This document shows, piece after piece, positions 3,782-58,768 of a DNA stretch of 64,000 bases. Below the pieces are notes generated by a model. The model did no database searches. It saw nothing but the letters and a program-made list of their open reading frames with translations, and was not told the DNA's origin. Position 1 is the stretch's first letter. Every line of letters starts with the position of its first letter. The stretch spans positions 15,613-79,612 of the forward strand of contig JAUCBJ010002409.1 of the NCBI GenBank assembly GCA_032718475.1, read 5' to 3'. A program made the position numbers and the translations under genes. Origin of the DNA: Nemertoderma westbladi (taxonomy: Eukaryota; Animalia; Xenacoelomorpha).

Positions 3782-3976
3782 TTTATGTTATAACCATAAC
3801 TACTTTTATGTTATTCCCATAGCGACTTTATGTTATTCCCATAACGACTTTATGTTATTCCCATACCGACTTTATGTTATTTCCATACCGACTTTATGTT
3901 ATTCCCATAACGACTTTATGTTATTCCCATAACGACTTTATGTTATTCCCATAGCGACTTTATGTTATTCCCATAG
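3782..3976 (+). repeat. 22-bp minisatellite (CGACTTTATGTTATTCCCATA[G/A/C]) whose last unit forms the 3' splice site
   Basis: About 9 copies; the final unit supplies the AG at 3975-3976. Confidence 0.92.
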
Positions 3977-4213: not shown

Positions 4214-4884
4214 GTTGATAATAATTATTATTGTTAACAAGAGTGGACGATTTTCTATGAATTTTAAATCTCTTCTTTCATAGGGTATTTAAAAAAGGCA
4301 GTCATTTATCTATCTACTAAAAATAACTAAATATTATGATATTAATATGACAATAATTAATAATATTAATAATTTTTTTTTTAATATACGCCCCCACTCG
4401 GGGCAATTCGGGTACTTTATTTATATAGTCCAGCTATTAAAAGGTATTTATACTGGATACAGAACAATAAAATAAAACAATATAGAAATAAAACTTTGTA
4501 GAAAACTGTTAATAGACAGTTTTAAAAGGACTGGTTAGCATTACAGTTAGTGAAGTGATGGTGTTTTGAGAGACCTATTCTTAATATTCTATAATAATAA
4601 TATCACCAAATTTTAACAGGAAAATCACTAAAATATTTAGTGTCCACTATAATTATATTAATTATCACTAAAATCTATTGATTGTCATTAAAAGGGAAAG
4701 GAGCAGGTTACAGCGACACGTTGTTCTAACCATAACATTCAACTAAATTCAATAGAACACCTTACAGTTATAGTTTTAGTGATAAAAAAAATAGTAAATA
4801 TTTGTACGTTATATATGTACTGAATATTAGACAACACTTTTAATTATCCTTAAAGCAATTTTTTAACTTTTTTTTTGAGTTTAG

Positions 4885-5055
4885 ATGCAAGAAACGTCTG
4901 CGTTGATTGGAGTTATACTCGGTGTTCAACCCCGTTCGGAGGCGGGGGGAACGGGTAAATCGAACGATGAAATTGTCTACGAACTGGCCGAGAACATCCT
5001 CGATAAACTCATGGATAAACTCGATATGGAAGACGCCAAGAGAGATATGTTTGAG
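4885..5055 (+). CDS. DNAH6: Dynein heavy chain exon
   Basis: tttag| ... |gtgaat; MQETSALIGVILGVQPR...GKSNDEIVYELAENIL. Confidence 0.9.
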
Positions 5056-5246: not shown

Positions 5247-5333
5247 TTGGACAAGAAAGGAAGGATGAACTCCCTAACAACGGTTCTCCTGCAGGAGGTC
5301 GATCGATTCAATAAACTGCTGGGCGTTATTAAG
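5247..5333 (+). CDS. DNAH6: Dynein heavy chain exon
   Basis: ttttag| ... |gtaagt; [29 protein letters not shown]. Confidence 0.92.
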
Positions 5334-5401
5334 GTAAGTAAAGTATCTGTGTTCATTAATGGATATTAATTATCATTTTATACGGGTATACCACCGTGTC
5401 G

Positions 5402-8400
5402 ACCACACGATCATCGGATGGTTTTACTTTCATTTCCGTTAGTGCCAAGCACACGATCGGAGGGTTTTACTTTCATTTCCGTTAGTGCCAACCACACGAT
5501 CGGAGGGTTTTACTTTCATTTCCTTTAGTGCCAACCACACGATCGGAGGGTTTTACTTTCATTTCCGTTAGTGCCAACCACACGATCGGAGGGTTTTACT
5601 TTCATTTCCGTTAGTGCCAACCACACGATCGGGGGGTTTTACTTTCATTTCCTTTAGTGCCAACCACACGATCGGAGGGTTTTACTTTCATTTCCGTTAG
5701 TGCCAACCACACGATCGGGGGGTTTTACTTTCATTTCCGTTAGTGTCAACCACACGATCGGGGGGTTTTACTTTCATTTCCTTTAGTACCAACCACACGA
5801 TCGGAGGGTTTTACTTTCATTTCCTTTAGTGCCAACCACACGATCGGAGGGTTTTACTTTCATTTCCTTTAGTACCAACCACACGATCGGAGGGTTTTAC
5901 TTTCATTTCCGTTAGTGCCAACCACACGATCGGAGGGTTTTACTTTCATTTCCTTTAGTGCCAACCACACGATCGGAGGGTTTTACTTTCATTTCCGTTA
6001 GTGCCAACCACACGATCGGAGGGTTTTACTTTCATTTCCGTTAGTGCCAACCACACGATCGGAGGGTTTTACTTTCATTTCCGTTAGTGCCAACCACACG
6101 ATCGGGGGGTTTTACTTTCATTTCCTTTAGTGCCAACCACACGATCGGAGGGTTTTACTTTCATTTCCGTTAGTGCCAACCACACGATCGGGGGGTTTTA
6201 CTTTCATTTCCGTTAGTGCCAACCACACGATCGGGGGGTTTTACTTTCATTTCCTTTAGTACCAACCACACGATCGGAGGGTTTTACTTTCATTTCCTTT
6301 AGTGCCAACCACACGATCGGGGGGTTTTACTTTCATTTCCGTTAGTGCCAATCACACGATCGGAGGGTTTTACTTTCATTTCCTTTAGTGCCAACCACAC
6401 GATCGGAGGGTTTTACTTTCATTTCCTTTAGTGCCAACCACACGATCGGAGGGTTTTACTTTCATTTCCGTTAGTGCCAATCACACGATCGGAGGGTTTT
6501 ACTTTCATTTCCTTTAGTGCCAACCACACGATCGGAGGGTTTTACTTTCATTTCCGTTAGTGCCAATCACACGATCGGAGGGTTTTACTTTCATTTCCTT
6601 TAGTGCCAACCACACGATCGGAGGGTTTTACTTTCATTTCCTTTAGTGCCAACCACACGATCGGAGGGTTTTACTTTCATTTCCTTTAGTGCCAACCACA
6701 CGATCGGAGGGTTTTACTTTCATTTCCTTTAGTGCCAACCACACGATCGGAGGGTTTTACTTTCATTTCCGTTAGTGCCAATCACACGATCGGAGGGTTT
6801 TACTTTCATTTCCTTTAGTGCCAACCACACGATCGGAGGGTTTTACTTTCATTTCCTTTAGTGCCAACCACACGATCGGAGGGTTTTACTTTCATTTCCT
6901 TTAGTGCCAACCACACGATCGGAGGGTTTTACTTTCATTTCATTTAGTGCCAACCACACGATCGGAGGGTTTTACTTTCATTTCATTTAGTGCCAACCAC
7001 ACGATCGGAGGGTTTTACTTTCATTTCCTTTAGTGCCAACCACACGATCGGAGGGTTTTACTTTCATTTCCTTTAGTGCCAACCACACGATCGGAGGGTT
7101 TTACTTTCATTTCCTTTAGTGCCAACCACACGATCGGAGGGTTTTACTTTCATTTCATTTAGTGCCAACCACACGATCGGAGGGTTTTACTTTCATTTCC
7201 TTTAGTGCCAACCACACGATCGGAGGGTTTTACTTTCATTTCCTTTAGTGCCAATCAGACGATCGGAGGGTTTTACTTTCATTTCCTTTAGTGCCAACCA
7301 CACGATCGGAGGGTTTTACTTTCATTTCCTTTAGTGCCAACCACACGATCGGAGGGTTTTACTTTCATTTCCGTTAGTGCCAATCACACGATCGGAGGGT
7401 TTTACTTTCATTTCCTTTAGTGCCAACCACACGATCGGAGGGTTTTACTTTCATTTCCGTTAGTGCCAATCACACGATCGGAGGGTTTTACTTTCATTTC
7501 CTTTAGTGCCAACCACACGATCGGAGGGTTTTACTTTCATTTCCTTTAGTGCCAACCACACGATCGGAGGGTTTTACTTTCATTTCCGTTAGTACCAACC
7601 ACACGATCGGAGGGTTTTACTTTCATTTCCTTTAGTGCCAACCACACGATCGGAGGGTTTTACTTTCATTTCCGTTAGTACCAACCACACGATCGGAGGG
7701 TTTTACTTTCATTTCCTTTAGTACCAACCACACGATCGGAGGGTTTTACTTTCATTTCCTTTAGTGCCAACCACACGATCGGAGGGTTTTACTTTCATTT
7801 CCTTTAGTGCCAACCACACGATCGGAGGGTTTTACTTTCATTTCCTTTAGTGCCAACCACACGATCGGAGGGTTTTACTTTCATTTCATTTAGTGCCAAC
7901 CACACGATCGGAGGGTTTTACTTTCATTTCCTTTAGTGCCAACCACACGATCGGAGGGTTTTACTTTCATTTCATTTAGTGCCAACCACACGATCGGAGG
8001 GTTTTACTTTCATTTCCTTTAGTGCCAACCACACGATCGGAGGGTTTTACTTTCATTTCCTTTAGTACCAATCACACGATCGGAGGGTTTTACTTTCATT
8101 TCCTTTAGTGCCAATCACACGATCGGAGGGTTTTACTTTCATTTCCTTTAGTGCCAACCACACGATCGGAGGGTTTTACTTTCATTTCCTTTAGTGCCAA
8201 CCACACGATCGGAGGGTTTTACTTTCATTTCCTTTAGTGCCAACCACACGATCGGAGGGTTTTACTTTCATTTCCTTTAGTGCCAACCACACGATCGGAG
8301 GGTTTTACTTTCATTTCCTTTAGTGCCAACCACACGATCGGAGGGTTTTACTTTCATTTCCTTTAGTGCCAACCACACGATCGGAGGGTTTTACTTTCAT

Positions 8401-11400
8401 TTCATTTAGTACCAACCACACGATCGGAGGGTTTTACTTTCATTTCCTTTAGTGCCAACCACACGATCGGAGGGTTTTACTTTCATTTCCTTTAGTGCCA
8501 ACCACACGATCGGAGGGTTTTACTTTCATTTCCTTTAGTGCCAACCACACGATCGGAGGGTTTTACTTTCATTTCCTTTAGTGCCAAGCACACGATCGGA
8601 GGGTTTTACTTTCATTTCCTTTAGTACCAACCACACGATCGGAGGGTTTTACTTTCATTTCCTTTAGTACCAACCACACGATCGGAGGGTTTTACTTTCA
8701 TTTCCTTTAGTACCAACCACACGATCGGAGGGTTTTAGTTTCATTTCCTTTAGTACCAACCACACGATCGGAGGGTTTTACTTTCATTTCCGTTAGTGCC
8801 AATCACACGATCGGAGGGTTTTACTTTCATTTCCTTTAGTGCCAACCACACGATCGGAGGGTTTTACTTTCATTTCCTTTAGTGCCAACCACACGATCGG
8901 AGGGTTTTACTTTCATTTCATTTAGTGCCAACCACACGATCGGAGGGTTTTACTTTCATTTCCTTTAGTGCCAACCACACGATCGGAGGGTTTTACTTTC
9001 ATTTCCGTTAGTGCCAATCACACGATCGGAGGGTTTTACTTTCATTTCCTTTAGTGCCAACCACACGATCGGAGGGTTTTACTTTCATTTCCTTTAGTAC
9101 CAACCACACGATCGGAGGGTTTTACTTTCATTTCCTTTAGTACCAACCACACGATCGGAGGGTTTTACTTTCATTTCCTTTAGTGCCAACCACACGATCG
9201 GAGGGTTTTACTTTCATTTCCTTTAGTACCAATCACACGATCGGAGGGTTTTACTTTCATTTCCTTTAGTGCCAACCACACGATCGGAGGGTTTTACTTT
9301 CATTTCCTTTAGTGCCAACCACACGATCGGAGGGTTTTACTTTCATTTCCTTTAGTGCCAACCACACGATCGGAGGGTTTTACTTTCATTTCCTTTAGTA
9401 CCAACCACACGATCGGAGGGTTTTACTTTCATTTCCTTTAGTGCCAACCACACGATCGGAGGGTTTTACTTTCATTTCCTTTAGTACCAACCACACGATC
9501 GGAGGGTTTTACTTTCATTTCCTTTAGTACCAACCACACGATCGGAGGGTTTTACTTTCATTTCCTTTAGTACCAACCACACGATCGGAGGGTTTTACTT
9601 TCATTTCCTTTAGTGCCAACCACACGATCGGAGGGTTTTACTTTCATTTCCTTTAGTACCAACCACACGATCGGAGGGTTTTACTTTCATTTCCTTTAGT
9701 ACCAACCACACGATCGGAGGGTTTTACTTTCATTTCCTTTAGTGCCAACCACACGATCGGAGGGTTTTACTTTCATTTCCTTTAGTACCAACCACACGAT
9801 CGGAGGGTTTTACTTTCATATCCTTTAGTGCCAACCACACGATCGGAGGGTTTTACTTTCATTTCCTTTAGTACCAACCACACGATCGGAGGGTTTTACT
9901 TTCATTTCCTTTAGTACCAACCACACGATCGGAGGGTTTTACTTTCATTTCCTTTAGTGCCAACCACACGATCGGAGGGTTTTACTTTCATTTCATTTAG
10001 TACCAACCACACGATCGGAGGGTTTTACTTTCATTTCCTTTAGTGCCAACCACACGATCGGAGGGTTTTACTTTCATTTCCTTTAGTACCAATCACACGA
10101 TCGGAGGGTTTTACTTTCATTTCATTTAGTACCAACCACACGATCGGAGGGTTTTACTTTCATTTCCTTTAGTGCCAACCACACGATCGGAGGGTTTTAC
10201 TTTCATTTCCTTTAGTACCAATCACACGATCGGAGGGTTTTACTTTCATTTCATTTAGTACCAACCACACGATCGGAGGGTTTTACTTTCATTTCCTTTA
10301 GTGCCAACCACACGATCGGAGGGTTTTACTTTCATTTCCTTTAGTACCAATCACACGATCGGAGGGTTTTACTTTCATTTCCTTTAGTGCCAATCACACG
10401 ATCGGAGGGTTTTACTTTCATTTCATTTAGTACCAACCACACGATCGGAGGGTTTTACTTTCATTTCCTTTAGTGCCAACCACACGATCGGAGGGTTTTA
10501 CTTTCATTTCCTTTAGTACCAATCACACGATCGGAGGGTTTTACTTTCATTTCCTTTAGTGCCAACCACACGATCGGAGGGTTTTACTTTCATTTCCTTT
10601 AGTGCCAACCACACGATCGGAGGGTTTTACTTTCATATCCTTTAGTGCCAACCACACGATCGGAGGGTTTTACTTTCATTTCCTTTAGTGCCAACCACAC
10701 GATCGGAGGGTTTTACTTTCATTTCCTTTAGTACCAACCACACGATCGGAGGGTTTTACTTTCATTTCCTTTAGTGCCAACCACACGATCGGAGGGTTTT
10801 ACTTTCATTTCCTTTAGTACCAACCACACGATCGGAGGGTTTTACTTTCATATCCTTTAGTGCCAACCACACGATCGGAGGGTTTTACTTTCATTTCCTT
10901 TAGTACCAACCACACGATCGGAGGGTTTTACTTTCATTTCCTTTAGTACCAACCACACGATCGGAGGGTTTTACTTTCATTTCCTTTAGTGCCAACCACA
11001 CGATCGGAGGGTTTTACTTTCATTTCATTTAGTACCAACCACACGATCGGAGGGTTTTACTTTCATTTCCTTTAGTGCCAACCACACGATCGGAGGGTTT
11101 TACTTTCATTTCCTTTAGTACCAATCACACGATCGGAGGGTTTTACTTTCATTTCATTTAGTACCAACCACACGATCGGAGGGTTTTACTTTCATTTCCT
11201 TTAGTGCCAACCACACGATCGGAGGGTTTTACTTTCATTTCCTTTAGTACCAATCACACGATCGGAGGGTTTTACTTTCATTTCCTTTAGTGCCAATCAC
11301 ACGATCGGAGGGTTTTACTTTCATTTCCTTTAGTGCCAACCACACGATCGGAGGGTTTTACTTTCATTTCCTTTAGTGCCAACCACACGATCGGAGGGTT

Positions 11401-14256
11401 TTACTTTCATTTCATTTAGTACCAACCACACGATCGGAGGGTTTTACTTTCATTTCCTTTAGTGCCAACCACACGATCGGAGGGTTTTACTTTCATTTCC
11501 TTTAGTACCAATCACACGATCGGAGGGTTTTACTTTCATTTCCTTTAGTGCCAACCACACGATCGGAGGGTTTTACTTTCATTTCATTTAGTACCAACCA
11601 CACGATCGGAGGGTTTTACTTTCATTTCCTTTAGTGCCAACCACACGATCGGAGGGTTTTACTTTCATATCCTTTAGTGCCAACCACACGATCGGAGGGT
11701 TTTACTTTCATTTCCTTTAGTGCCAACCACACGATCGGAGGGTTTTACTTTCATTTCCTTTAGTACCAACCACACGATCGGAGGGTTTTACTTTCATTTC
11801 CTTTAGTGCCAACCACACGATCGGAGGGTTTTACTTTCATTTCCTTTAGTACCAACCACACGATCGGAGGGTTTTACTTTCATATCCTTTAGTGCCAACC
11901 ACACGATCGGAGGGTTTTACTTTCATTTCCTTTAGTACCAACCACACGATCGGAGGGTTTTACTTTCATTTCCTTTAGTACCAACCACACGATCGGAGGG
12001 TTTTACTTTCATTTCCTTTAGTGCCAACCACACGATCGGAGGGTTTTACTTTCATATCCTTTAGTGCCAACCACACGATCGGAGGGTTTTACTTTCATTT
12101 CCTTTAGTACCAACCACACGATCGGAGGGTTTTACTTTCATTTCCTTTAGTGCCAACCACACGATCGGAGGGTTTTACTTTCATTTCCTTTAGTGCCAAC
12201 CACACGATCGGAGGGTTTTACTTTCATTTCCTTTAGTGCCAACCACACGATCGGAGGGTTTTACTTTCATTTCCTTTAGTACCAACCACACGATCGGAGG
12301 GTTTTACTTTCATTTCCTTTAGTGCCAACCACACGATCGGAGGGTTTTACTTTCATTTCCTTTAGTGCCAACCACACGATCGGAGGGTTTTACTTTCATT
12401 TCCTTTAGTACCAACCACACGATCGGAGGGTTTTACTTTCATTTCCTTTAGTACCAACCACACGATCGGAGGGTTTTACTTTCATTTCCGTTAGTACCAA
12501 CCACACGATCGGAGGGTTTTACTTTCATTTCCTTTAGTGCCAACCACACGATCGGAGGGTTTTACTTTCATTTCCTTTAGTGCCAACCACACGATCGGGG
12601 GGTTTTACTTTCATTTCCTTTAGTGCCAACCACACGATCGGAGGGTTTTACTTTCATTTCCGTTAGTGCCAACCACACGATCGGGGGGTTTTACTTTCAT
12701 TTCCTTTAGTGCCAACCACACGATCGGAGGGTTTTACTTTCATTTCCTTTAGTGCCAACCACACGATCGGAGGGTTTTACTTTCATTTCCTTTAGTACCA
12801 ACCACACGATCGGAGGGTTTTACTTTCATTTCCTTTAGTGCCAACCACACGATCGGAGGGTTTTACTTTCATTTCCTTTAGTGCCAACCACACGATCGGA
12901 GGGTTTTACTTTCATTTCCGTTAGTGCCAACCACACGATCGGAGGGTTTTACTTTCATTTCCTTTAGTGCCAACCACACGATCGGAGGGTTTTACTTTCA
13001 TTTCCTTTAGTACCAATCACACGATCGGAGGGTTTTACTTTCATTTCCGTTAGTGCCAATCACACGATCGGAGGGTTTTACTTTCATTTCCTTTAGTGCC
13101 AACCACACGATCGGAGGGTTTTACTTTCATTTCCGTTAGTGCCAACCACACGATCGGAGGGTTTTACTTTCATTTCCTTTAGTGCCAACCACACGATCGG
13201 AGGGTTTTACTTTCATTTCCTTTAGTGCCAACCACACGATCGGAGGGTTTTACTTTCATATCCTTTAGTGCCAACCACACGATCGGAGGGTTTTACTTTC
13301 ATTTCCTTTAGTACCAACCACACGATCGGAGGGTTTTACTTTCATTTCATTTAGTACCAACCACACGATCGGAGGGTTTTACTTTCATTTCCTTTAGTGC
13401 CAACCACACGATCGGAGGGTTTTACTTTCATTTCCTTTAGTGCCAACCACACGATCGGAGGGTTTTACTTTCATTTCCTTTAGTGCCAACCACACGATCG
13501 GGGGGTTTTACTTTCATTTCCGTTAGTGCCAATCACACGATCGGAGGGTTTTACTTTCATTTCCTTTAGTGCCAACCACACGATCGGGGGGTTTTACTTT
13601 CATTTCCGTTAGTGCCAACCACACGATCGGAGGGTTTTACTTACATTTCCTTTAGTGCCAACCACACGATCGGAGGGTTTTACTTTCATTTCCTTTAGTA
13701 CCAACCACACGATCGGAGGGTTTTACTTTCATTTCCTTTAGTACCAACCACACGATCGGAGGGTTTTACTTTCATTTCCTTTAGTACCAACCACACGATC
13801 GGAGGGTTTTACTTTCATTTCCGTTAGTGCCAACCACACGATCGGAGGGTTTTACTTTCATTTCCTTTAGTGCCAACCACACGATCGGAGGGTTTTACTT
13901 TCATTTCCTTTAGTACCAACCACACGATCGGAGGGTTTTACTTTCATTTCCTTTAGTGCCAACCACACGATCGGAGGGTTTTACTTTCATTTCCGTTAGT
14001 GCCAATCACACGATCGGAGGGTTTTACTTTCATTTCCTTTAGTGCCAACCACACGATCGGAGGGTTTTACTTTCATTTCCGTTAGTGCCAATCACACGAT
14101 CGGAGGGTTTTACTTTCATTTCCTTTAGTGCCAACCACACGATCGGAGGGTTTTACTTTCATTTCCGTTAGTGCCAATCACACGATCGGAGGGTTTTACT
14201 TTCATTTCCTTTAGTGCCAACCACACGATCGGAGGGTTTTACTTTCATTTCCGTTA
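5402..14256 (+). repeat. 43-bp intronic satellite (CCACACGATCGGAGGGTTTTACTTTCATTTCCTTTAGTGCCAA)n, about 206 copies
   Basis: Head-to-tail near-identical units that fill almost all of intron 5334-14264. Confidence 0.98.
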
Positions 14257-14264
14257 TATTTTAG

Positions 14265-14450
14265 ATTTCTTTAATAAATCTGCAAAAGGCAATTAAAGGT
14301 TTGGTTGTTATGGACGACAAACTGGAACTGATTTATGGTTGTTTCCTTAACAACCAAGTACCTGGCCAATGGGAGGACGTCGCCTATCCGTCATTGAAAC
14401 CGCTCGGTAGTTGGGTCAATGACCTTAGACTGCGAACACATTTTATTGAT
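14265..14450 (+). CDS. DNAH6: Dynein heavy chain exon
   Basis: ttttag| ... |gtgagt; [16 protein letters not shown]...LNNQVPGQW...[15 protein letters not shown]. Confidence 0.93.
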
Positions 14451-14779
14451 GTGAGTATTGGTTGAAATTATTATTATTGCTATTATATTATGGTGAGCGC
14501 ATATGGCTGCGTTGGACTGTTATGAGGTGATTGACGTCGTTGATGCGGTACCGGTAGCTTCTATACTAAATTAAGTATTTAACTTTCAGTTTTATGTTAT
14601 TATCAAGTTATTACCGATAGACTGCTGTCTACATGTCCAGACAGTGTACTGACGATTCCGACAAACATGTTCTTATGTTTGTTATCATGTTGCTTAGAAA
14701 CACTCGTGCAATAAATAAATATTTCCTCCCCAAAGTTATTTATCTATTCCTAATATTTATTCGGATTGTATTCTTGCAG

Positions 14780-15473: not shown

Positions 15474-15696
15474 ATTCCAAAGATTAAGGACGGAGTTTTA
15501 GTCCATGGTCTGTTTCTGGACGCGGCCCGATGGAATGACGTCACCAACCAGCTGAGTGACCCCCTGCCAGGCGAGATGAACCCAACCTTCCCGATGATGC
15601 ATATGGAACCCCAGATGAGTTTCCAGGTTCCAGAACGCGATTATATCTGTCCGTTGTATAAAACATCAGCACGAGCCGGGGTTCTATCTACTACCG
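15474..15696 (+). CDS. DNAH6: Dynein heavy chain penultimate coding exon
   Basis: tttcag| ... ACT ACC G|gtaagt; DGVLVHGLFLDAARW...YICPLYKTSARAGVLSTT. Confidence 0.93.
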
Positions 15697-18600
15697 GTAA
15701 GTTTATTTAACACGAGCCGGGGTTCTATCTACCGGTAAGTTTATTTAACACGAGCCGGGGTTCTATCTACCGGTAAGTTTATTTAACACGAGCCGGGGTT
15801 CTATCTACCGGTAAGTTTATTTAACACGAGCCGGGGTTCTATCTACTACCGGTAAGTTTATTTAACACGAGTCGGGGTTCTATCTACTACCGGTAAGTTT
15901 ATTTAACACGAGCCGGGGTTCTATCTACTACCGGTAAGTTTATTTAACACGAGCCGGGGTTCTATCTACCGGTAAGTTAATTTAACACGAGTCGGGGTTC
16001 TATCTACCGGTAAGTTTATTTAACACGAGTCGGGGTTCTATCTACTACCGGTAAGTTTATTTAACACGAGTCGGGGTTCTATCTACTACCGGTAAGTTTA
16101 TTTAACACGAGCCGGGGTTCTATCTACCGGTAAGTTTATTTAACACGAGCCGGGGTTCTATCTACCGGTAAGTTTATTTAACACGAGCCGGGGTTCTATC
16201 TACCGGTAAGTTTATTTAACACGAGCCGGGGTTCTATCTACCGGTAAGTTTATTTAACACGAGCCGGGGTTCTATCTACTACCGGTAAGTTTATTTAACA
16301 CGAGCCGGGGTTCTATCTACCGGTAAGTTTATTTAACACGAGCCGGGGTTCTATCTACCGGTAAGTTTATTTAACACGAGCCGGGGTTCTATCTACCGGT
16401 AAGTTTATTTAACACGAGCCGGGGTTCTATCTACCGGTAAGTTTATTTAACACGAGCCGGGGTTCTATCTACCGGTAAGTTTATTTAACACGAGCCGGGG
16501 TTCTATCTACTACCGGTAAGTTTATTTAACACGAGCCGGGGTTCTATCTACTACCGGTAAGTTTATTTAACACGAGTCGGGGTTCTATCTACCGGTAAGT
16601 TTATTTAACACGAGCCGGGGTTCTATCTACTACCGGTAAGTTTATTTAACACGAGCCGGGGTTCTATCTACTACCGGTAAGTTTATTTAACACGAGTCGG
16701 GGTTCTATCTACTACCGGTAAGTTTATTTAACACGAGTCGGGGTTCTATCTACTACCGGTAAGTTTATTTAACACGAGCCGGGGTTCTATCTACCGGTAA
16801 GTTTATTTAACACGAGCCGGGGTTCTATCTACCGGTAAGTTTATTTAACACGAGTCGGGGTTCTATCTACCGGTAAGTTTATTTAACACGAGCCGGGGTT
16901 CTATCTACTACCGGTAAGTTTATTTAACACGAGCCGGGGTTCTATCTACTACCGGTAAGTTTATTTAACACGAGTCGGGGTTCTATCTACTACCGGTAAG
17001 TTTATTTAACACGAGTCGGGGTTCTATCTACTACCGGTAAGTTTATTTAACACGAGTCGGGGTTCTATCTACTACCGGTAAGTTTATTTAACACGAGCCG
17101 GGGTTCTATCTACTACCGGTAAGTTTATTTAACACGAGTCGGGGTTCTATCTACTACCGGTAAGTTTATTTAACACGAGTCGGGGTTCTATCTACTACCG
17201 GTAAGTTTATTTAACACGAGTCGGGGTTCTATCTACTACCGGTAAGTTTATTTAACACGAGTCGGGGTTCTATCTACTACCGGTAAGTTTATTTAACACG
17301 AGCCGGGGTTCTATCTACTACCGGTAAGTTTATTTAACACGAGCCGGGGTTCTATCTACCGGTAAGTTTATTTAACACGAGTCGGGGTTCTATCTCTACC
17401 GGTAAGTTTATTTAACACGAGCCGGGGTTCTATCTACCGGTAAGTTTATTTAACACGAGCCGGGGTTCTATCTACTACCGGTAAGTTTATTTAACACGAG
17501 CCGGGGTTCTATCTACTACCGGTAAGTTTATTTAACACGAGTCGGGGTTCTATCTACCGGTAAGTTTATTTAACACGAGCCGGGGTTCTATCTACCGGTA
17601 AGTTTATTTAACACGAGCCGGGGTTCTATCTACTACCGGTAAGTTTATTTAACACGAGCCGGGGTTCTATCTACTACCGGTAAGTTTATTTAACACGAGT
17701 CGGGGTTCTATCTACTACCGGTAAGTTTATTTAACACGAGCCGGGGTTCTATCTACCGGTAAGTTTATTTAACACGAGCCGGGGTTCTATCTACTACCGG
17801 TAAGTTTATTTAACACGAGCCGGGGTTCTATCTACTACCGGTAAGTTTATTTAACACGAGCCGGGGTTCTATCTACTACCGGTAAGTTTATTTAACACGA
17901 GCCGGGGTTCTATCTACTACCGGTAAGTTTATTTAACACGAGCCGGGGTTCTATCTACTACCGGTAAGTTTATTTAACACGAGCCGGGGTTCTATCTACT
18001 ACCGGTAAGTTTATTTAACACGAGCCGGGGTTCTATCTACTACCGGTAAGTTTATTTAACACGAGTCGGGGTTCTATCTACTACCGGTAAGTTTATTTAA
18101 CACGAGCCGGGGTTCTATCTACTACCGGTAAGTTTATTTAACACGAGCCGGGGTTCTATCTACTACCGGTAAGTTTATTTAACACGAGCCGGGGTTCTAT
18201 CTACTACCGGTAAGTTTATTTAACACGAGCCGGGGTTCTATCTACCGGTAAGTTTATTTAACACGAGCCGGGGTTCTATCTACCGGTAAGTTTATTTAAC
18301 ACGAGTCGGGGTTCTATCTACCGGTAAGTTTATTTAACACGAGCCGGGGTTCTATCTACTACCGGTAAGTTTATTTAACACGAGCCGGGGTTCTATCTAC
18401 CGGTAAGTTTATTTAACACGAGCCGGGGTTCTATCTACCGGTAAGTTTATTTAACACGAGCCGGGGTTCTATCTACTACCGGTAAGTTTATTTAACACGA
18501 GCCGGGGTTCTATCTACTACCGGTAAGTTTATTTAACACGAGCCGGGGTTCTATCTACTACCGGTAAGTTTATTTAACACGAGTCGGGGTTCTATCTACC

Positions 18601-21600
18601 GGTAAGTTTATTTAACACGAGCCGGGGTTCTATCTACTACCGGTAAGTTTATTTAACACGAGCCGGGGTTCTATCTACCGGTAAGTTTATTTAACACGAG
18701 CCGGGGTTCTATCTACTACCGGTAAGTTTATTTAACACGAGTCGGGGTTCTATCTACCGGTAAGTTTATTTAACACGAGCCGGGGTTCTATCTACTACCG
18801 GTAAGTTTATTTAACACGAGCCGGGGTTCTATCTACTACCGGTAAGTTTATTTAACACGAGTCGGGGTTCTATCTACCGGTAAGTTTATTTAACACGAGC
18901 CGGGGTTCTATCTACCGGTAAGTTTATTTAACACGAGCCGGGGTTCTATCTACTACCGGTAAGTTTATTTAACACGAGCCGGGGTTCTATCTACCGGTAA
19001 GTTTATTTAACACGAGTCGGGGTTCTATCTACTACCGGTAAGTTTATTTAACACGAGCCGGGGTTCTATCTACTACCGGTAAGTTTATTTAACACGAGTC
19101 GGGGTTCTATCTACCGGTAAGTTTATTTAACACGAGCCGGGGTTCTATCTACCGGTAAGTTTATTTAACACGAGTCGGGGTTCTATCTACTACCGGTAAG
19201 TTTATTTAACACGAGCCGGGGTTCTATCTACTACCGGTAAGTTTATTTAACACGAGCCGGGGTTCTATCTACTACCGGTAAGTTTATTTAACACGAGCCG
19301 GGGTTCTATCTACTACCGGTAAGTTTATTTAACACGAGCCGGGGTTCTATCTACTACCGGTAAGTTTATTTAACACGAGTCGGGGTTCTATCTACTACCG
19401 GTAAGTTTATTTAACACGAGCCGGGGTTCTATCTACTACCGGTAAGTTTATTTAACACGAGTCGGGGTTCTATCTACCGGTAAGTTTATTTAACACGAGC
19501 CGGGGTTCTATCTACTACCGGTAAGTTTATTTAACACGAGCCGGGGTTCTATCTACTACCGGTAAGTTTATTTAACACGAGCCGGGGTTCTATCTACTAC
19601 CGGTAAGTTTATTTAACACGAGCCGGGGTTCTATCTACTACCGGTAAGTTTATTTAACACGAGCCGGGGTTCTATCTACTACCGGTAAGTTTATTTAACA
19701 CGAGCCGGGGTTCTATCTACTACCGGTAAGTTTATTTAACACGAGCCGGGGTTCTATCTACTACCGGTAAGTTTATTTAACACGAGTCGGGGTTCTATCT
19801 ACTACCGGTAAGTTTATTTAACACGAGCCGGGGTTCTATCTACTACCGGTAAGTTTATTTAACACGAGTCGGGGTTCTATCTACCGGTAAGTTTATTTAA
19901 CACGAGCCGGGGTTCTATCTACCGGTAAGTTTATTTAACACGAGCCGGGGTTCTATCTACCGGTAAGTTTATTTAACACGAGTCGGGGTTCTATCTACTA
20001 CCGGTAAGTTTATTTAACACGAGCCGGGGTTCTATCTACTACCGGTAAGTTTATTTAACACGAGCCGGGGTTCTATCTACTACCGGTAAGTTTATTTAAC
20101 ACGAGCCGGGGTTCTATCTACTACCGGTAAGTTTATTTAACACGAGCCGGGGTTCTATCTACTACCGGTAAGTTTATTTAACACGAGCCGGGGTTCTATC
20201 TACTACCGGTAAGTTTATTTAACACGAGCCGGGGTTCTATCTACTACCGGTAAGTTTATTTAACACGAGCCGGGGTTCTATCTACTACCGGTAAGTTTAT
20301 TTAACACGAGCCGGGGTTCTATCTACTACCGGTAAGTTTATTTAACACGAGCCGGGGTTCTATCTACTACCGGTAAGTTTATTTAACACGAGCCGGGGTT
20401 CTATCTACTACCGGTAAGTTTATTTAACACGAGCCGGGGTTCTATCTACTACCGGTAAGTTTATTTAACACGAGCCGGGGTTCTATCTACTACCGGTAAG
20501 TTTATTTAACACGAGCCGGGGTTCTATCTACTACCGGTAAGTTTATTTAACACGAGTCGGGGTTCTATCTACTACCGGTAAGTTTATTTAACACGAGCCG
20601 GGGTTCTATCTACTACCGGTAAGTTTATTTAACACGAGCCGGGGTTCTATCTACCGGTAAGTTTATTTAACACGAGCCGGGGTTCTATCTACCGGTAAGT
20701 TTATTTAACACGAGCCGGGGTTCTATCTACTACCGGTAAGTTTATTTAACACGAGCCGGGGTTCTATCTACTACCGGTAAGTTTATTTAACACGAGCCGG
20801 GGTTCTATCTACTACCGGTAAGTTTATTTAACACGAGCCGGGGTTCTATCTACCGGTAAGTTTATTTAACACGAGCCGGGGTTCTATCTACTACCGGTAA
20901 GTTTATTTAACACGAGCCGGGGTTCTATCTACTACCGGTAAGTTTATTTAACACGAGCCGGGGTTCTATCTACTACCGGTAAGTTTATTTAACACGAGCC
21001 GGGGTTCTATCTACTACCGGTAAGTTTATTTAACACGAGCCGGGGTTCTATCTCTACCGGTAAGTTTATTTAACACGAGCCGGGGTTCTATCTACTACCG
21101 GTAAGTTTATTTAACACGAGCCGGGGTTCTATCTACTACCGGTAAGTTTATTTAACACGAGCCGGGGTTCTATCTACTACCGGTAAGTTTATTTAACACG
21201 AGCCGGGGTTCTATCTACTACCGGTAAGTTTATTTAACACGAGCCGGGGTTCTATCTACTACCGGTAAGTTTATTTAACACGAGCCGGGGTTCTATCTAC
21301 TACCGGTAAGTTTATTTAACACGAGCCGGGGTTCTATCTACTACCGGTAAGTTTATTTAACACGAGCCGGGGTTCTATCTACTACCGGTAAGTTTATTTA
21401 ACACGAGCCGGGGTTCTATCTACTACCGGTAAGTTTATTTAACACGAGCCGGGGTTCTATCTACCGGTAAGTTTATTTAACACGAGCCGGGGTTCTATCT
21501 ACTACCGGTAAGTTTATTTAACACGAGCCGGGGTTCTATCTACTACCGGTAAGTTTATTTAACACGAGCCGGGGTTCTATCTACTACCGGTAAGTTTATT

Positions 21601-24600
21601 TAACACGAGCCGGGGTTCTATCTACCGGTAAGTTTATTTAACACGAGCCGGGGTTCTATCTACTACCGGTAAGTTTATTTAACACGAGCCGGGGTTCTAT
21701 CTACTACCGGTAAGTTTATTTAACACGAGCCGGGGTTCTATCTACTACCGGTAAGTTTATTTAACACGAGCCGGGGTTCTATCTACTACCGGTAAGTTTA
21801 TTTAACACGAGCCGGGGTTCTATCTACTACCGGTAAGTTTATTTAACACGAGCCGGGGTTCTATCTACTACCGGTAAGTTTATTTAACACGAGCCGGGGT
21901 TCTATCTACTACCGGTAAGTTTATTTAACACGAGCCGGGGTTCTATCTACTACCGGTAAGTTTATTTAACACGAGCCGGGGTTCTATCTACTACCGGTAA
22001 GTTTATTTAACACGAGCCGGGGTTCTATCTACTACCGGTAAGTTTATTTAACACGAGCCGGGGTTCTATCTACTACCGGTAAGTTTATTTAACACGAGCC
22101 GGGGTTCTATCTACTACCGGTAAGTTTATTTAACACGAGCCGGGGTTCTATCTACTACCGGTAAGTTTATTTAACACGAGCCGGGGTTCTATCTACTACC
22201 GGTAAGTTTATTTAACACGAGCCGGGGTTCTATCTACTACCGGTAAGTTTATTTAACACGAGCCGGGGTTCTATCTACTACCGGTAAGTTTATTTAACAC
22301 GAGCCGGGGTTCTATCTACTACCGGTAAGTTTATTTAACACGAGCCGGGGTTCTATCTACTACCGGTAAGTTTATTTAACACGAGCCGGGGTTCTATCTA
22401 CTACCGGTAAGTTTATTTAACACGAGCCGGGGTTCTATCTACTACCGGTAAGTTTATTTAACACGAGCCGGGGTTCTATCTACTACCGGTAAGTTTATTT
22501 AACACGAGCCGGGGTTCTATCTACTACCGGTAAGTTTATTTAACACGAGCCGGGGTTCTATCTACTACCGGTAAGTTTATTTAACACGAGCCGGGGTTCT
22601 ATCTACTACCGGTAAGTTTATTTAACACGAGCCGGGGTTCTATCTACTACCGGTAAGTTTATTTAACACGAGCCGGGGTTCTATCTACTACCGGTAAGTT
22701 TATTTAACACGAGCCGGGGTTCTATCTACTACCGGTAAGTTTATTTAACACGAGCCGGGGTTCTATCTACTACCGGTAAGTTTATTTAACACGAGCCGGG
22801 GTTCTATCTACTACCGGTAAGTTTATTTAACACGAGCCGGGGTTCTATCTACTACCGGTAAGTTTATTTAACACGAGCCGGGGTTCTATCTACTACCGGT
22901 AAGTTTATTTAACACGAGCCGGGGTTCTATCTACCGGTAAGTTTATTTAACACGAGCCGGGGTTCTATCTACCGGTAAGTTTATTTAACACGAGCCGGGG
23001 TTCTATCTACCGGTAAGTTTATTTAACACGAGCCGGGGTTCTATCTACTACCGGTAAGTTTATTTAACACGAGCCGGGGTTCTATCTACTACCGGTAAGT
23101 TTATTTAACACGAGCCGGGGTTCTATCTACTACCGGTAAGTTTATTTAACACGAGCCGGGGTTCTATCTACTACCGGTAAGTTTATTTAACACGAGCCGG
23201 GGTTCTATCTACTACCGGTAAGTTTATTTAACACGAGCCGGGGTTCTATCTACTACCGGTAAGTTTATTTAACACGAGCCGGGGTTCTATCTACTACCGG
23301 TAAGTTTATTTAACACGAGCCGGGGTTCTATCTACTACCGGTAAGTTTATTTAACACGAGCCGGGGTTCTATCTACTACCGGTAAGTTTATTTAACACGA
23401 GCCGGGGTTCTATCTACTACCGGTAAGTTTATTTAACACGAGCCGGGGTTCTATCTACTACCGGTAAGTTTATTTAACACGAGCCGGGGTTCTATCTACT
23501 ACCGGTAAGTTTATTTAACACGAGCCGGGGTTCTATCTACTACCGGTAAGTTTATTTAACACGAGCCGGGGTTCTATCTACTACCGGTAAGTTTATTTAA
23601 CACGAGCCGGGGTTCTATCTACTACCGGTAAGTTTATTTAACACGAGCCGGGGTTCTATCTACTACCGGTAAGTTTATTTAACACGAGCCGGGGTTCTAT
23701 CTACCGGTAAGTTTATTTAACACGAGCCGGGGTTCTATCTACCGGTAAGTTTATTTAACACGAGCCGGGGTTCTATCTACTACCGGTAAGTTTATTTAAC
23801 ACGAGCCGGGGTTCTATCTACCGGTAAGTTTATTTAACACGAGCCGGGGTTCTATCTACTACCGGTAAGTTTATTTAACACGAGCCGGGGTTCTATCTAC
23901 TACCGGTAAGTTTATTTAACACGAGCCGGGGTTCTATCTACTACCGGTAAGTTTATTTAACACGAGCCGGGGTTCTATCTACCGGTAAGTTTATTTAACA
24001 CGAGCCGGGGTTCTATCTACTACCGGTAAGTTTATTTAACACGAGCCGGGGTTCTATCTACTACCGGTAAGTTTATTTAACACGAGCCGGGGTTCTATCT
24101 ACTACCGGTAAGTTTATTTAACACGAGCCGGGGTTCTATCTACTACCGGTAAGTTTATTTAACACGAGCCGGGGTTCTATCTACTACCGGTAAGTTTATT
24201 TAACACGAGCCGGGGTTCTATCTACCGGTAAGTTTATTTAACACGAGCCGGGGTTCTATCTACTACCGGTAAGTTTATTTAACACGAGCCGGGGTTCTAT
24301 CTACTACCGGTAAGTTTATTTAACACGAGCCGGGGTTCTATCTACTACCGGTAAGTTTATTTAACACGAGCCGGGGTTCTATCTACCGGTAAGTTTATTT
24401 AACACGAGCCGGGGTTCTATCTACTACCGGTAAGTTTATTTAACACGAGCCGGGGTTCTATCTACCGGTAAGTTTATTTAACACGAGCCGGGGTTCTATC
24501 TACTACCGGTAAGTTTATTTAACACGAGCCGGGGTTCTATCTACTACCGGTAAGTTTATTTAACACGAGCCGGGGTTCTATCTACCGGTAAGTTTATTTA

Positions 24601-27600
24601 ACACGAGCCGGGGTTCTATCTACTACCGGTAAGTTTATTTAACACGAGCCGGGGTTCTATCTACTACCGGTAAGTTTATTTAACACGAGCCGGGGTTCTA
24701 TCTACTACCGGTAAGTTTATTTAACACGAGCCGGGGTTCTATCTACTACCGGTAAGTTTATTTAACACGAGCCGGGGTTCTATCTACTACCGGTAAGTTT
24801 ATTTAACACGAGCCGGGGTTCTATCTACCGGTAAGTTTATTTAACACGAGCCGGGGTTCTATCTACTACCGGTAAGTTTATTTAACACGAGCCGGGGTTC
24901 TATCTACTACCGGTAAGTTTATTTAACACGAGCCGGGGTTCTATCTACTACCGGTAAGTTTATTTAACACGAGCCGGGGTTCTATCTACTACCGGTAAGT
25001 TTATTTAACACGAGCCGGGGTTCTATCTACTACCGGTAAGTTTATTTAACACGAGCCGGGGTTCTATCTACCGGTAAGTTTATTTAACACGAGCCGGGGT
25101 TCTATCTACTACCGGTAAGTTTATTTAACACGAGCCGGGGTTCTATCTACTACCGGTAAGTTTATTTAACACGAGCCGGGGTTCTATCTACTACCGGTAA
25201 GTTTATTTAACACGAGCCGGGGTTCTATCTACCGGTAAGTTTATTTAACACGAGCCGGGGTTCTATCTACTACCGGTAAGTTTATTTAACACGAGCCGGG
25301 GTTCTATCTACCGGTAAGTTTATTTAACACGAGCCGGGGTTCTATCTACTACCGGTAAGTTTATTTAACACGAGTCGGGGTTCTATCTACCGGTAAGTTT
25401 ATTTAACACGAGCCGGGGTTCTATCTACTACCGGTAAGTTTATTTAACACGAGCCGGGGTTCTATCTACTACCGGTAAGTTTATTTAACACGAGCCGGGG
25501 TTCTATCTACCGGTAAGTTTATTTAACACGAGCCGGGGTTCTATCTACCGGTAAGTTTATTTAACACGAGCCGGGGTTCTATCTACTACCGGTAAGTTTA
25601 TTTAACACGAGCCGGGGTTCTATCTACCGGTAAGTTTATTTAACACGAGCCGGGGTTCTATCTACTACCGGTAAGTTTATTTAACACGAGCCGGGGTTCT
25701 ATCTACTACCGGTAAGTTTATTTAACACGAGCCGGGGTTCTATCTACTACCGGTAAGTTTATTTAACACGAGCCGGGGTTCTATCTACCGGTAAGTTTAT
25801 TTAACACGAGCCGGGGTTCTATCTACTACCGGTAAGTTTATTTAACACGAGCCGGGGTTCTATCTACTACCGGTAAGTTTATTTAACACGAGCCGGGGTT
25901 CTATCTACTACCGGTAAGTTTATTTAACACGAGCCGGGGTTCTATCTACTACCGGTAAGTTTATTTAACACGAGCCGGGGTTCTATCTACTACCGGTAAG
26001 TTTATTTAACACGAGCCGGGGTTCTATCTACTACCGGTAAGTTTATTTAACACGAGCCGGGGTTCTATCTACTACCGGTAAGTTTATTTAACACGAGTCG
26101 GGGTTCTATCTACCGGTAAGTTTATTTAACACGAGCCGGGGTTCTATCTACCGGTAAGTTTATTTAACACGAGCCGGGGTTCTATCTACCGGTAAGTTTA
26201 TTTAACACGAGCCGGGGTTCTATCTACTACCGGTAAGTTTATTTAACACGAGCCGGGGTTCTATCTACCGGTAAGTTTATTTAACACGAGCCGGGGTTCT
26301 ATCTACTACCGGTAAGTTTATTTAACACGAGCCGGGGTTCTATCTACTACCGGTAAGTTTATTTAACACGAGCCGGGGTTCTATCTACCGGTAAGTTTAT
26401 TTAACACGAGCCGGGGTTCTATCTACTACCGGTAAGTTTATTTAACACGAGCCGGGGTTCTATCTACTACCGGTAAGTTTATTTAACACGAGCCGGGGTT
26501 CTATCTACTACCGGTAAGTTTATTTAACACGAGCCGGGGTTCTATCTACCGGTAAGTTTATTTAACACGAGCCGGGGTTCTATCTACTACCGGTAAGTTT
26601 ATTTAACACGAGCCGGGGTTCTATCTACTACCGGTAAGTTTATTTAACACGAGCCGGGGTTCTATCTACTACCGGTAAGTTTATTTAACACGAGCCGGGG
26701 TTCTATCTACTACCGGTAAGTTTATTTAACACGAGCCGGGGTTCTATCTACTACCGGTAAGTTTATTTAACACGAGCCGGGGTTCTATCTACCGGTAAGT
26801 TTATTTAACACGAGCCGGGGTTCTATCTACTACCGGTAAGTTTATTTAACACGAGCCGGGGTTCTATCTACTACCGGTAAGTTTATTTAACACGAGCCGG
26901 GGTTCTATCTACTACCGGTAAGTTTATTTAACACGAGCCGGGGTTCTATCTACCGGTAAGTTTATTTAACACGAGCCGGGGTTCTATCTACTACCGGTAA
27001 GTTTATTTAACACGAGCCGGGGTTCTATCTACTACCGGTAAGTTTATTTAACACGAGCCGGGGTTCTATCTACTACCGGTAAGTTTATTTAACACGAGCC
27101 GGGGTTCTATCTACTACCGGTAAGTTTATTTAACACGAGCCGGGGTTCTATCTACTACCGGTAAGTTTATTTAACACGAGCCGGGGTTCTATCTACCGGT
27201 AAGTTTATTTAACACGAGCCGGGGTTCTATCTACTACCGGTAAGTTTATTTAACACGAGTCGGGGTTCTATCTACTACCGGTAAGTTTATTTAACACGAG
27301 CCGGGGTTCTATCTACTACCGGTAAGTTTATTTAACACGAGCCGGGGTTCTATCTACCGGTAAGTTTATTTAACACGAGCCGGGGTTCTATCTACTACCG
27401 GTAAGTTTATTTAACACGAGCCGGGGTTCTATCTACCGGTAAGTTTATTTAACACGAGCCGGGGTTCTATCTACTACCGGTAAGTTTATTTAACACGAGC
27501 CGGGGTTCTATCTACCGGTAAGTTTATTTAACACGAGCCGGGGTTCTATCTACTACCGGTAAGTTTATTTAACACGAGCCGGGGTTCTATCTACTACCGA

Positions 27601-28724
27601 TAAGTTTATTTAACACGAGCCGGGGTTCTATCTACCGGTAAGTTTATTTAACACGAGCCGGGGTTCTATCTACTACCGGTAAGTTTATTTAACACGAGCC
27701 GGGGTTCTATCTACTACCGGTAAGTTTATTTAACACGAGCCGGGGTTCTATCTACTACCGGTAAGTTTATTTAACACGAGCCGGGGTTCTATCTACTACC
27801 GGTAAGTTTATTTAACACGAGCCGGGGTTCTATCTACTACCGGTAAGTTTATTTAACACGAGCCGGGGTTCTATCTACTACCGGTAAGTTTATTTAACAC
27901 GAGCCGGGGTTCTATCTACCGGTAAGTTTATTTAACACGAGCCGGGGTTCTATCTACTACCGGTAAGTTTATTTAACACGAGCCGGGGTTCTATCTACTA
28001 CCGGTAAGTTTATTTAACACGAGCCGGGGTTCTATCTACTACCGGTAAGTTTATTTAACACGAGCCGGGGTTCTATCTACTACCGGTAAGTTTATTTAAC
28101 ACGAGCCGGGGTTCTATCTACTACCGGTAAGTTTATTTAACACGAGCCGGGTTCTATCTACTACCGGTAAGTTTATTTAACACGAGCCGGGGTTCTATCT
28201 ACCGGTAAGTTTATTTAACACGAGCCGGGGTTCTATCTACTACCGGTAAGTTTATTTAACACGAGCCGGGGTTATATCTACTACCGGTAAGTTTATTTAA
28301 CACGAGTCGGGGTTCTATCTACCGGTAAGTTTATTTAACACGAGCCGGGGTTCTATCTACTACCGGTAAGTTTATTTAACACGAGTCGGGGTTCTATCTA
28401 CTACCGGTAAGTTTATTTAACACGAGTCGGGGTTCTATCTACTACCGGTAAGTTTATTTAACACGAGTCGGGGTTCTATCTACCGGTAAGTTTATTTAAC
28501 ACGAGCCGGGGTTCTATCTACTACCGGTAAGTTTATTTAACACGAGTCGGGGTTCTATCTACTACCGGTAAGTTAATTTAACACGAGTCGGGGTTCTATC
28601 TACTACCGGTAAGTTTATTTAACATGAGTCGGGGTTCTATCTACCGGTAAGTTTATTTAACACGAGCCGGGGTTCTATCTACTACCGGTAAGTTTATTTA
28701 ACACGAGCCGGGGTTCTATCTACT
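15670..28724 (+). repeat. 41/38-bp satellite (CACGAGCCGGGGTTCTATCTAC[TAC]CGGTAAGTTTATTTAA)n, roughly 325 copies, starting inside the exon
   Basis: The first unit is the last 27 nt of exon 15474-15696 plus 14 nt of intron; the array ends 20 nt before the next exon. Confidence 0.98.
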
Positions 28725-28744
28725 TCCCATTTGGTATTTTGTAG

Positions 28745-30183: not shown

Positions 30184-31936
30184 CGGCAGCTCCAAACCAA
30201 AACCCAGTATGTCAATTTTTTCGAAATCGATTTTTTTCGATTTTTGGGGTTATTGGGGGCGTAGAATTCATCTGACTCAGTTTCGAAACCATAGCACTAA
30301 CCGATTTCGCAGTATTAACAATTAATTAATTAACTAATTAGCTAATTATGAGCAAACACCACGTCGAAACACAGTAATGCTAGTTACTGGGTTTCGTTTA
30401 CCTTTCTGGTGCTATTTTGAAAAAGTTACTCCATCAAAACCCAGTATGTGCTCAAAAATCCCGAAATCCTATGCCAAAACCCAGTAACTGCACTTACTGG
30501 GTTTCGAGCAAAATTCTTTACTGGGTTTTCACCTGGTATTTTCTGAACAAAATCAAGTATCGTTTCCGAAAGACAAAACCTAGTATGTCAATGTCAATGT
30601 CAGATTTACCACGTCAAAACCCAGTAAACATAGTTACTGGGTTTCCAGCAGTTTGAGATACTACTACTACTACTAGGATCGGCATGCTGCATTGAAGCTG
30701 CATTTTTAAAAATGCTGTGCCGGCTTGTCGACAAAATTGCACCGCCACAACTCCCTATCACCCATGACATTTGCTAGATCATCCGCATCTTCAAGGCCAG
30801 TGTCCTTTAAGATGCGTCTCAAGAAAGTCATGGGCTGTCCACCATGCTTATTCACTCCATGAGGCTGCCAAAGTACAAGATTATGCACTGGCTGGTCCTC
30901 ACGGCGAAAGCAATGTCCTGCAAAGCGGAGGCGATTTTGTTCTAGTGTCAAGCTTGGGGGAACCAATGAGACACCTCTAATGTTATATAGTGTCTGGTTG
31001 GAGATGTGTGTATTGTACTTGACACAATGAACCCGGCGTAGCATTCTTGTGAATGTTCCATCCAGAGATTTGGTGTCCTCAGCAGTTAGAGCCCAGCATG
31101 GGCTCCCATAGAGGAGTACTGGAACTACTGCTGCTCTAAATAATCGGACCTTGTGTTTCTGATTAATGCTCGGTGACTTCCAAATCTTGGAAAGCCTATT
31201 CAAGGCTGCCCATGCCTTTCCCTTACGTATTCGAAGGTCCTCACCTGACTTCCGGATCCATGATCCCAGGTAACAGAAATCGTCCACATGCTCAAGCATC
31301 CATCCTTTGAGGTTATGCTCATCCGATCAGAGACTTGCTGAGGACATTCAAAGTTAAGATGAGATACTAGGTTTTGACGTGGGATTTCCCTATGCAGATA
31401 CTATGCCAAACCAAAACCCAGTAACTCCGGCAACGCAACAGACGTAGACAAATAATTAAGTGTTCTAGAATATTATATTCTACAATGTTGCCTCTTTGTT
31501 TTCGCTAACCGTTGGCGAAGGAAGTCAGAGTTACTGGGTTTTGGCGAAGGGACTTGTCAGTTACTTGGTTTTGGCATGGGAAAGGTAACTGATTGGAAAA
31601 GTTAAATGTTAGTTTACTGGGTTTTGGTGTGGGCAAATTAGTTACTGTGTTTTGAAAAGGGAACAATGACGTTACTGGGTATTGATGCATCAAAAATCAC
31701 AATTGTTTTCTTTTCAGCCATACCAAAACCGTGTAAGTCGATTTATAAGAAAAGTAAAGAATAAATTAAAAAAACAGTTTTGGCACTAATAATATATATG
31801 TACAATTTGTAAAGGTACACAAAATTATAACTCATCAAATTAAATTTCAACCAAATGCCAGCTGTTTAAAGTCCAAAACTTTAATATCTCGAAAAGTCAA
31901 AAAATGTACTTACTGGGTTTTGGTTTGGAGCCGCCG
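30184..31936. mobile_element. Non-autonomous TIR DNA transposon with a 4-bp TSD (TGTG) and many internal AAAACCCAGTA motifs
   Basis: 26-bp TIR CGGC(A/G)GCTCCAAACCAAAACCCAGTA at both ends; TGTG at 30180-30183 and 31937-31940. Confidence 0.8.
30664..31359 (-). mobile_element. 5'-truncated RTE-clade LINE (RT thumb and C-terminal region) with a (TAG)n tail
   Basis: ORF 30706-31299 VDDFCYLGSWI...VLLYGSPCWAL...RLRFAGHCFR; short-repeat tail at 30661-30675; TGAGATACTA flanks both sides (30654, 31360). Confidence 0.88.
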
Positions 31937-32699: not shown

Positions 32700-33032
32700 G
32701 AAAACATATTATTTAGCCGAAAACATATATATTATTTAGCCGGAAACATATATATTATTTAGCCGAAAACATACATATTATTTAGCTGAAAACATATATA
32801 TTATTTAGCCGAAAACATATATATTATTTAGCCGAAAACATATATATTATTTAGCCGAAAACATATATATTATTTAGCTGAAAACATATATATTATTTAG
32901 CCGAAAACATATATATTATTTAGCTGAAAACATATATATTATTTAGCCGAAAAAATATATATTATTTAGCTGAAAACATACATATTATTTAGCCGAAAAC
33001 ATATCACTGAGTCAAAAACATATTATTTAGCC
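32700..33032. repeat. 23-bp minisatellite (GAAAACATATATATTATTTAGCC)n, about 13-14 copies
   Basis: Directly visible tandem units. Confidence 0.93.
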
Positions 33033-55409: not shown

Positions 55410-55410
55410 G

Positions 55411-58768
<3,358 letters not shown>

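Follow-up and report, generated by a model that had tools for sequence, protein, structure and literature searches.

A 43-bp intronic array of acceptor-like junctions is skipped in a spliced contig of a DNAH6-like gene from Nemertoderma westbladi

A spliced contig joins the exons on either side of the array

We analyzed a 64,000-nt stretch of the genome of Nemertoderma westbladi (Xenacoelomorpha; GenBank assembly GCA_032718475.1, contig JAUCBJ010002409.1, positions 15,613 to 79,612 of the forward strand), hereafter the window. Its plus strand carries the 3′ part of a gene resembling DNAH6, axonemal dynein heavy chain 6, and one intron of this gene (5334-14264, 8931 nt, GTAAGT...AG) contains a tandem array of 43-bp units. 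Each time one unit meets the next, an AG arises behind a pyrimidine tract. In the one spliced contig that crosses the intron, donor 5333 was joined directly to 14265, which comes last among 206 candidate sites. Because the acceptor used was the last one, plain 5′-to-3′ scanning from the donor cannot explain the choice.

The part of the gene within the window extends from 661 to 28848 and comprises 12 exons and 654 codons, with a TAG stop ending at 28848. Zero internal stops were found across the 12 exons and 11 of 11 introns had GT-AG ends; the short introns measure 131-191 nt, and the last one (15697-28744) is 13,048 nt long. A homologue search listed 120 matches with 57-77% identity, and those named by species were animal proteins, none of them closely related. 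The exon upstream of the array (5247-5333, phase 0, donor AAG/GTAAGT) corresponds to DNAH6 residues 3871-3899. The 186-nt exon downstream (14265-14450, donor GAT/GTGAGT) begins at residue 3900 and has DNAH6 as its best match (E = 4.6e-20, residues 3900-3961 of PDB 9d2f_T), so that the two exons adjoin on this protein (9d2f_T residues 3899/3900) with no gap.

To follow the intron in sequencing data we used public runs, of which six were listed and four (X1 to X4) covered all or part of the stretch; none was recorded as RNA. X1 may be the source sample of the window, X2 and X3 are one sample from another study, and X4 is a third sample. All four runs were available as contigs, with no read spanning the array, and their depth is a rough guide rather than a copy number. 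Despite its guessed label of “DNA?”, we take X4 to be RNA because of its spliced joints. A 1838-nt X4 contig covers exons only, supporting the last seven exons of the gene. Within the two stretches examined it skips four introns, three of which have GT..AG ends; the fourth has the right length and two other letters at the joint. These two letters lie at 5054-5055, the end of exon 4885-5055, where the frame is kept and either an allele or a contig error could be responsible.

Across the array-bearing intron, the upstream exon matches X4 contig positions 826-912 and the downstream exon positions 913-1098. An X4 contig of equal length and depth aligned over 14263-14450 with its positions 911-1098, and its loose letters before 14263 were the end of the upstream exon. 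The intron itself, which had been proposed from the letters alone, is therefore supported both by the gapless mapping of its flanking exons and by a contig that joins them, and in this one contig the junction from donor 5333 led to 14265 with every decoy skipped. The repeat unit was covered by none of the X4 contigs (depth of 0 over 5376-5456 and over 14195-14245), but contigs drop rare forms. Normal mRNA splicing despite the repeated signals was thus seen in one contig, in which rare isoforms would be invisible. On paper, 31 pairs of a decoy AG and a GTTAGT donor would give 81-nt pseudo-exons that are open in frame; none was found among the X4 contigs, which cannot demonstrate their absence.

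Acceptor-like AGs exist only at the unit junctions

Tandem Repeats Finder reported the array at 5413-14256, with a period of 43, 205.7 copies and 97% matches. Read in the phase GTG...TTA, it consists of exactly 206.0 units. A diverged first unit of 46 nt with a 3-nt duplication (5396-5441), which is likely to be near the single-copy ancestor, is followed by 205 regular units of 43 nt (5442-14256) with a mean identity of 98.2% to their consensus. The unique 5′ part of the intron (5334-5395) is 62 nt long and the unique 3′ end (14257-14264), with the real acceptor AG, is 8 nt long. The sequence-only reading of this stretch had given the latter length correctly, although its figure of about 68 nt for the 5′ end has to be shortened because the diverged unit begins at 5396.

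Each decoy AG straddles a seam, taking its A from the end of one unit and its G from the start of the following one. The same reading had described the last unit as breaking off before its own AG; in fact both ends of the array share one phase and the AG arises where units meet. Its estimate of about 206 decoys was accurate, since we counted 205 junction TTAGs (each a YAG after a pyrimidine tract) and one TTAG created by a point mutation. The 21-nt motif that it placed in every unit occurs in exact form at only 147 of the 205 junctions; the others read CCGTTAG (33), CATTTAG (16) or another form (9). The weaker CCGTTAG form is enriched at the ends of the array (23 of 60 end junctions versus 10 of 145 middle junctions, p = 1.5e-7), and CCGTTA is present in both terminal units. 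A T at this variable position, which makes the better-looking acceptor, was found at 172 of 205 junctions. Variants are ordered and locally clustered along the array, which shows weak higher-order periodicity (best lag, 24 units).

The 43-bp unit is wholly intronic (-51 to -9 relative to the exon), and the bases that follow a decoy AG are unlike the start of the exon. It had also been stated that the unit has no strong GT donor. This holds only in part: thirty-three units do contain CC/GTTAGT, the hexamer being the intronic part of the real donor at 852, although the full 9-mer is weak, as the best donor within the array (TCC/GTTAGT, 33 copies) scored 2.3, compared to 1.4-11.7 for 11 real donors. 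The matrices for acceptors and donors are crude, as they were built from 11 sites of this gene.

The unit is abundant in two samples

In X1, a 31-nt contig of the unit had a depth of 5500 while single-copy contigs had depths of 26.6-34.3. The unit 31-mer was present at 160-207 times single copy in X1 and occurs 168 times in the window. Only two X1 contigs enter the unit from unique sequence, and both came from the known flanks (seven of seven records examined), which fits a repeat at a single locus. By contig depth, the ratio of unit to single copy was 128-207 in X1, 17-61 in X2 and 42-129 in X3, and an X2 contig (14227-14460) runs from the last unit into the downstream exon. The high depth in X1 and X2/X3, together with this contig, indicates that the array exists in two samples. 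Its length may vary between samples.

The base at 14262 differed between the window and the runs. The window has T at this position, whereas X1 and X2 both read C; X3 has no cover over 14246-14551, and X2 also differs at 14258, where it reads T. The real acceptor is therefore probably CAG, unlike every junction decoy, and not the TAG that had been read from the window. The T in the window matches the repeat consensus and may represent either another allele or a consensus error.

Most decoys score like real acceptors but differ from the real site in branch-like spacing and position

Under an acceptor matrix built from the other 11 real acceptors, the real site scored 7.6 (7.6 and 8.7 with the bases of X1 and X2, respectively). 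Forty-seven of the 205 decoys outscored it, at 8.1-8.2, and 161 of 205 scored above the median real acceptor of the gene (4.1, leave-one-out). The internal sites do, then, resemble acceptors by the standard of this crude matrix, as had been supposed, and since most of them score like real ones, sequence strength does not silence them. Only 0.5% of 20,000 shuffles of the unit gave a YAG with as many upstream pyrimidines, so the likeness of the unit to an acceptor exceeds chance.

Spacing and position, on the other hand, set the real site apart. In the decoys, branch-like adenosines lie at -17 and -11; for the real site the corresponding positions are -24 and -18, and the outer pair agrees with the 16 versus 23 nt claimed from the sequence. 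For comparison, human branch points fall 19-37 nt upstream of the acceptor in 90% of cases (PMC4315302). An AG that competes from less than 12-18 nt away is at a disadvantage, and the minimum is generally about 8 nt (PMC5378181). A GGAG is present at -25 of the decoys in 194 units. All but two of the 205 decoys are more than 300 nt away from the real downstream donor.

All of the TTAG decoys (206 of 206) would introduce a premature stop, in 204 cases within the extension and in two by a frameshift in the exon. As a consequence, mRNA alone cannot demonstrate that the decoys are silent, and a leak could be hidden.

Proposed exon-side recognition and its alternatives

We regard it as probable that the decoys are bypassed through definition of the exon from its own side, helped by branch spacing, both of which the sequence-only reading had suggested, and with decay as a safety net. 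The spliceosome would commit across the 186-nt exon, and the last AG is the one beside the real exon and its donor. Among the nearest AGs, one lying 24 and 18 nt below its branch-like adenosines would be preferred over decoys lying 17 and 11 nt below theirs. Any leak would be frameshifted or stopped and cleared by nonsense-mediated decay, so that selection against the array would be weak. With exon-side recognition, the array most likely has no function and represents neutral repeat growth.

Several observations weigh against this explanation. The branch positions are guesses from motifs: YTNAY is absent within 60 nt of two of the 12 real acceptors, and the real acceptor at 3977 has YTNAY at -15. 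Splicing from the donor at 5334 to any of the first four decoys would remove an intron of 109-238 nt, a normal size here; these early decoys are expected to compete during transcription, and exon definition is no obvious bar to them. Three of the four are the weaker variant. In addition, the evidence consists of contigs, which drop rare variants, decay would mask the use of decoys, and X4 is a third sample in whose contigs the array itself was not seen.

One alternative is that decoys are often used and that clean mRNA represents the survivors of nonsense-mediated decay, in which case a longer array would lower DNAH6 output, as for the repeat in human ABCA7. This is compatible with the premature stops in all 206 decoy products, with the 47 decoys that outscore the real acceptor and with the short-intron distance of the early decoys from the donor. 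The depth ratios, rough as they are, also hint at fewer copies in the second sample, and in human ABCA7 the retention of one unit and exon skipping depend on the length of a variable number tandem repeat (VNTR) (PMC5954066). However, the normal full junction is present, the stronger variants have spread through the array with no sign of purging and, more weakly, no X4 contig contains the array. We therefore consider frequent decoy use unlikely, if still worth weighing.

It could also be speculated that the structure of the repeat RNA hides the branch sites of the decoys and leaves the last, extended copy exposed. In folding predictions, five units folded better than shuffles (z = -3.07), and the predicted unpaired probability of the branch-like A was 0.13-0.45 for four decoys and 0.59/0.92 for the real site. 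The AG of the real site is predicted to be paired too (0.07/0.04), and access to the pyrimidine tract overlaps between decoys (0.55-0.81) and the real site (0.74). Since these folds describe equilibrium at 37 °C in a short cut-out, a structural explanation seems doubtful to us.

It is very unlikely that most of the array was produced by faulty assembly, or that a dispersed satellite or a fragment of a transposon settled at this position. In favor of such a reading, the window departs from X1 and X2 at 14262 toward the repeat consensus, perhaps through an error in polishing; X1 is possibly the sample from which the window came, and no long read spans the array. Against it, the X1 31-mer depth of 160-207 times single copy accords with 168 copies in the window, the unit also reaches high depth in the sample of a second study and continues there into the exon, and the unit fits the local intron anatomy in exact phase with ordered, locally clustered variants. 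Equally improbable is a functional array, selected as a delay or as a ladder of recursive splicing in a gene for cilia or sperm, in the manner of the Drosophila Y-linked dyneins. Although the host is an axonemal dynein and 78% of 589-28848 is array, its array-filled introns measure 9-13 kb and not megabases, copy number looks variable, and a ladder was rejected because each of the 205 junction AGs precedes TG or TA and never GT, so that no donor is regenerated.

Origin of the array

The array is likely to have grown by tandem duplication of the intron's own branch and pyrimidine stretch, as judged from its sequence. Deleting 205 units leaves an intron of 116 nt with AGs only at its 5′ end and at its true end. 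The exact count of 206.0 units with the same phase at both ends, and the resemblance of the 116-nt remainder to the introns of 131-191 nt, support this origin. In an ancestral intron of about 116 nt, the segment from -51 to -9 would have been duplicated such that an A and a G came together at the seam and made a new YAG. Slippage or unequal exchange would then have expanded the array, and a G-to-T variant would have spread through its middle. On this history, the unit looks like an acceptor because it would have been copied from the acceptor's own upstream signal. When we simulated duplications near nine array-free acceptors, a junction YAG arose in 145 of 6642 cases (2.2%); an AG at the seam is thus uncommon, yet unremarkable for a case that was picked out.

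That the better-looking form is in the majority (172 of 205) fits decoys that are nearly invisible to selection, and the enrichment of CCGTTAG at the ends fits the usual sparing of array ends. The end units of the amphioxus repeats known as mirages likewise escape homogenization (PMC3087553). Selection for weak decoys near real donors could also account for the enrichment.

A donor-side array and comparison with known systems

Tandem arrays occupy four of the 12 introns seen in this gene, one of them partial. The second array (15670-28724) consists of 41/38-bp units in which the last 27 nt of an exon are followed by 14 nt from the start of the last intron. It contains 323 CG/GTAAGT donors, of which 321 are identical over -6 to +14. 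In one X4 contig the transcript leaves this array at the first donor (15697) and continues with the last exon, and read-through past that donor would run immediately into an in-frame TAA. The unique sequence at the 3′ end of this intron amounts to only 20 nt, and the best branch-like motif of the intron (-44) arises where two units join.

Mirages have been described in amphioxus Adh3, in the globins BflGb6 and BflGb9, in troponin C and in PGBD5; they are repeats that span exon-intron boundaries, at either the 5′ or the 3′ side, and are unstable in length, with splicing reported intact (PMC3087553, PMC3902484). The 43-bp array resembles them in that local splice-boundary sequence is repeated head to tail with splice signals in the units. 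However, a mirage unit spans the boundary whereas the 43-bp unit stops 8 nt short of it, and BflGb6 has 3-6 units compared to 206 here. With neither exon sequence nor the authentic AG in its unit, the 43-bp array lacks the defining feature of a mirage. The second array, on the other hand, is a true donor-side mirage: its unit spans the boundary and, in the one contig, only the most upstream donor is used.

The 37-bp VNTR in intron 7 of human F7 has 5-9 identical donors, of which only the first, adjacent to the exon, is used (PMC1557585). It is a direct match for the 323-donor array, and it differs from the 43-bp array in lying on the donor side and using the first site met, not the last of 206 acceptors. 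The 25-bp VNTR in intron 18 of human ABCA7 ranges from 12 to about 427 units and up to 10.7 kb (PMC5954066). It is like the 43-bp array in its comparable size, in abutting an exon, in carrying a splice signal in each unit and in its out-of-frame leak products, and unlike it in lying on the donor side and in having had its leak and length effects measured. We found no acceptor-side array of hundreds of units in open-licence papers. What is new here is the size on the acceptor side and the AG made at the junction; the kind of repeat itself was already known.

It has long been asked how the spliceosome passes over sites that look usable. Here one transcript carries 205 near-identical acceptor look-alikes before a real site and, two introns away, 322 near-identical donors after a real one. 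The gene is therefore a test system for leak versus position at both kinds of splice site, and its value does not lie in a new mechanism. The donor array is the cleaner natural decoy experiment of the two.

The genes kl-3 and kl-5 on the Drosophila Y chromosome encode axonemal dyneins, and their giant introns are reportedly filled with satellite. They share with the DNAH6-like gene the swelling of introns by tandem repeats in a dynein host. In contrast, the fly introns hold megabases of simple satellite and are served by a dedicated germline program, while the introns here are 8.9 and 13.0 kb long and hold local splice-signal sequence. One could imagine that the two arrays act as a copy-number dial on DNAH6, with decoys measurably used, their products destroyed and several-fold differences in length between individuals setting the dose of dynein. 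We think this improbable; if it were true, the swelling of four of 12 introns, seeded at splice boundaries, would have led independently and on a small scale to introns like the giant ones of fly dyneins.

Other arrays and features in the window

Two further arrays lie in the same gene on the plus strand. The third (3782-3975) has 22-bp units like the acceptor region at 3976, which it abuts, and two of its seven regular units keep an AG. The fourth (1-588) has a 13-bp purine-rich unit and extends beyond the start of the window; its end, roughly 70 nt upstream of the acceptor at 660, is closely followed by a TACTAAC. Within the intron stretch 4383-4737, which has very high depth in DNA runs, the segment 4521-4563 is tandemly repeated somewhere, as it has a joint leading back 43 and a depth of 1248 in X1. 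Around 4690-4737 the depth climbed to 40,000-89,000 and the flanks were many and varied, as would be expected for the terminus of a mobile element present in very large numbers.

Outside the DNAH6-like gene, long open frames were found on the minus strand at 36037-40645 and 57752-60450. From their motifs we take them to belong to a kinase gene of the MAP4K4/TNIK/misshapen type. A kinase-like exon occurs twice in nearly identical form (57752-58768 and 59422-60450), whereas a single long exon encodes the C-terminal domain. A probable transposon on the minus strand (42705-47927) has open frames of 979 and 633 aa, with about 260 codons duplicated between them, and has related 129-130-bp repeats on its two sides (42219-42515 and 49978-50271). 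Fragments at 30706-31326 and 54704-55441, also on the minus strand, presumably derive from the reverse transcriptase of a non-LTR (long terminal repeat) retrotransposon, as judged by their motifs. A piece related to these fragments lies in a dynein intron at about 2700-2870, and a further minisatellite, with a 23-bp unit, occupies 32706-33004.

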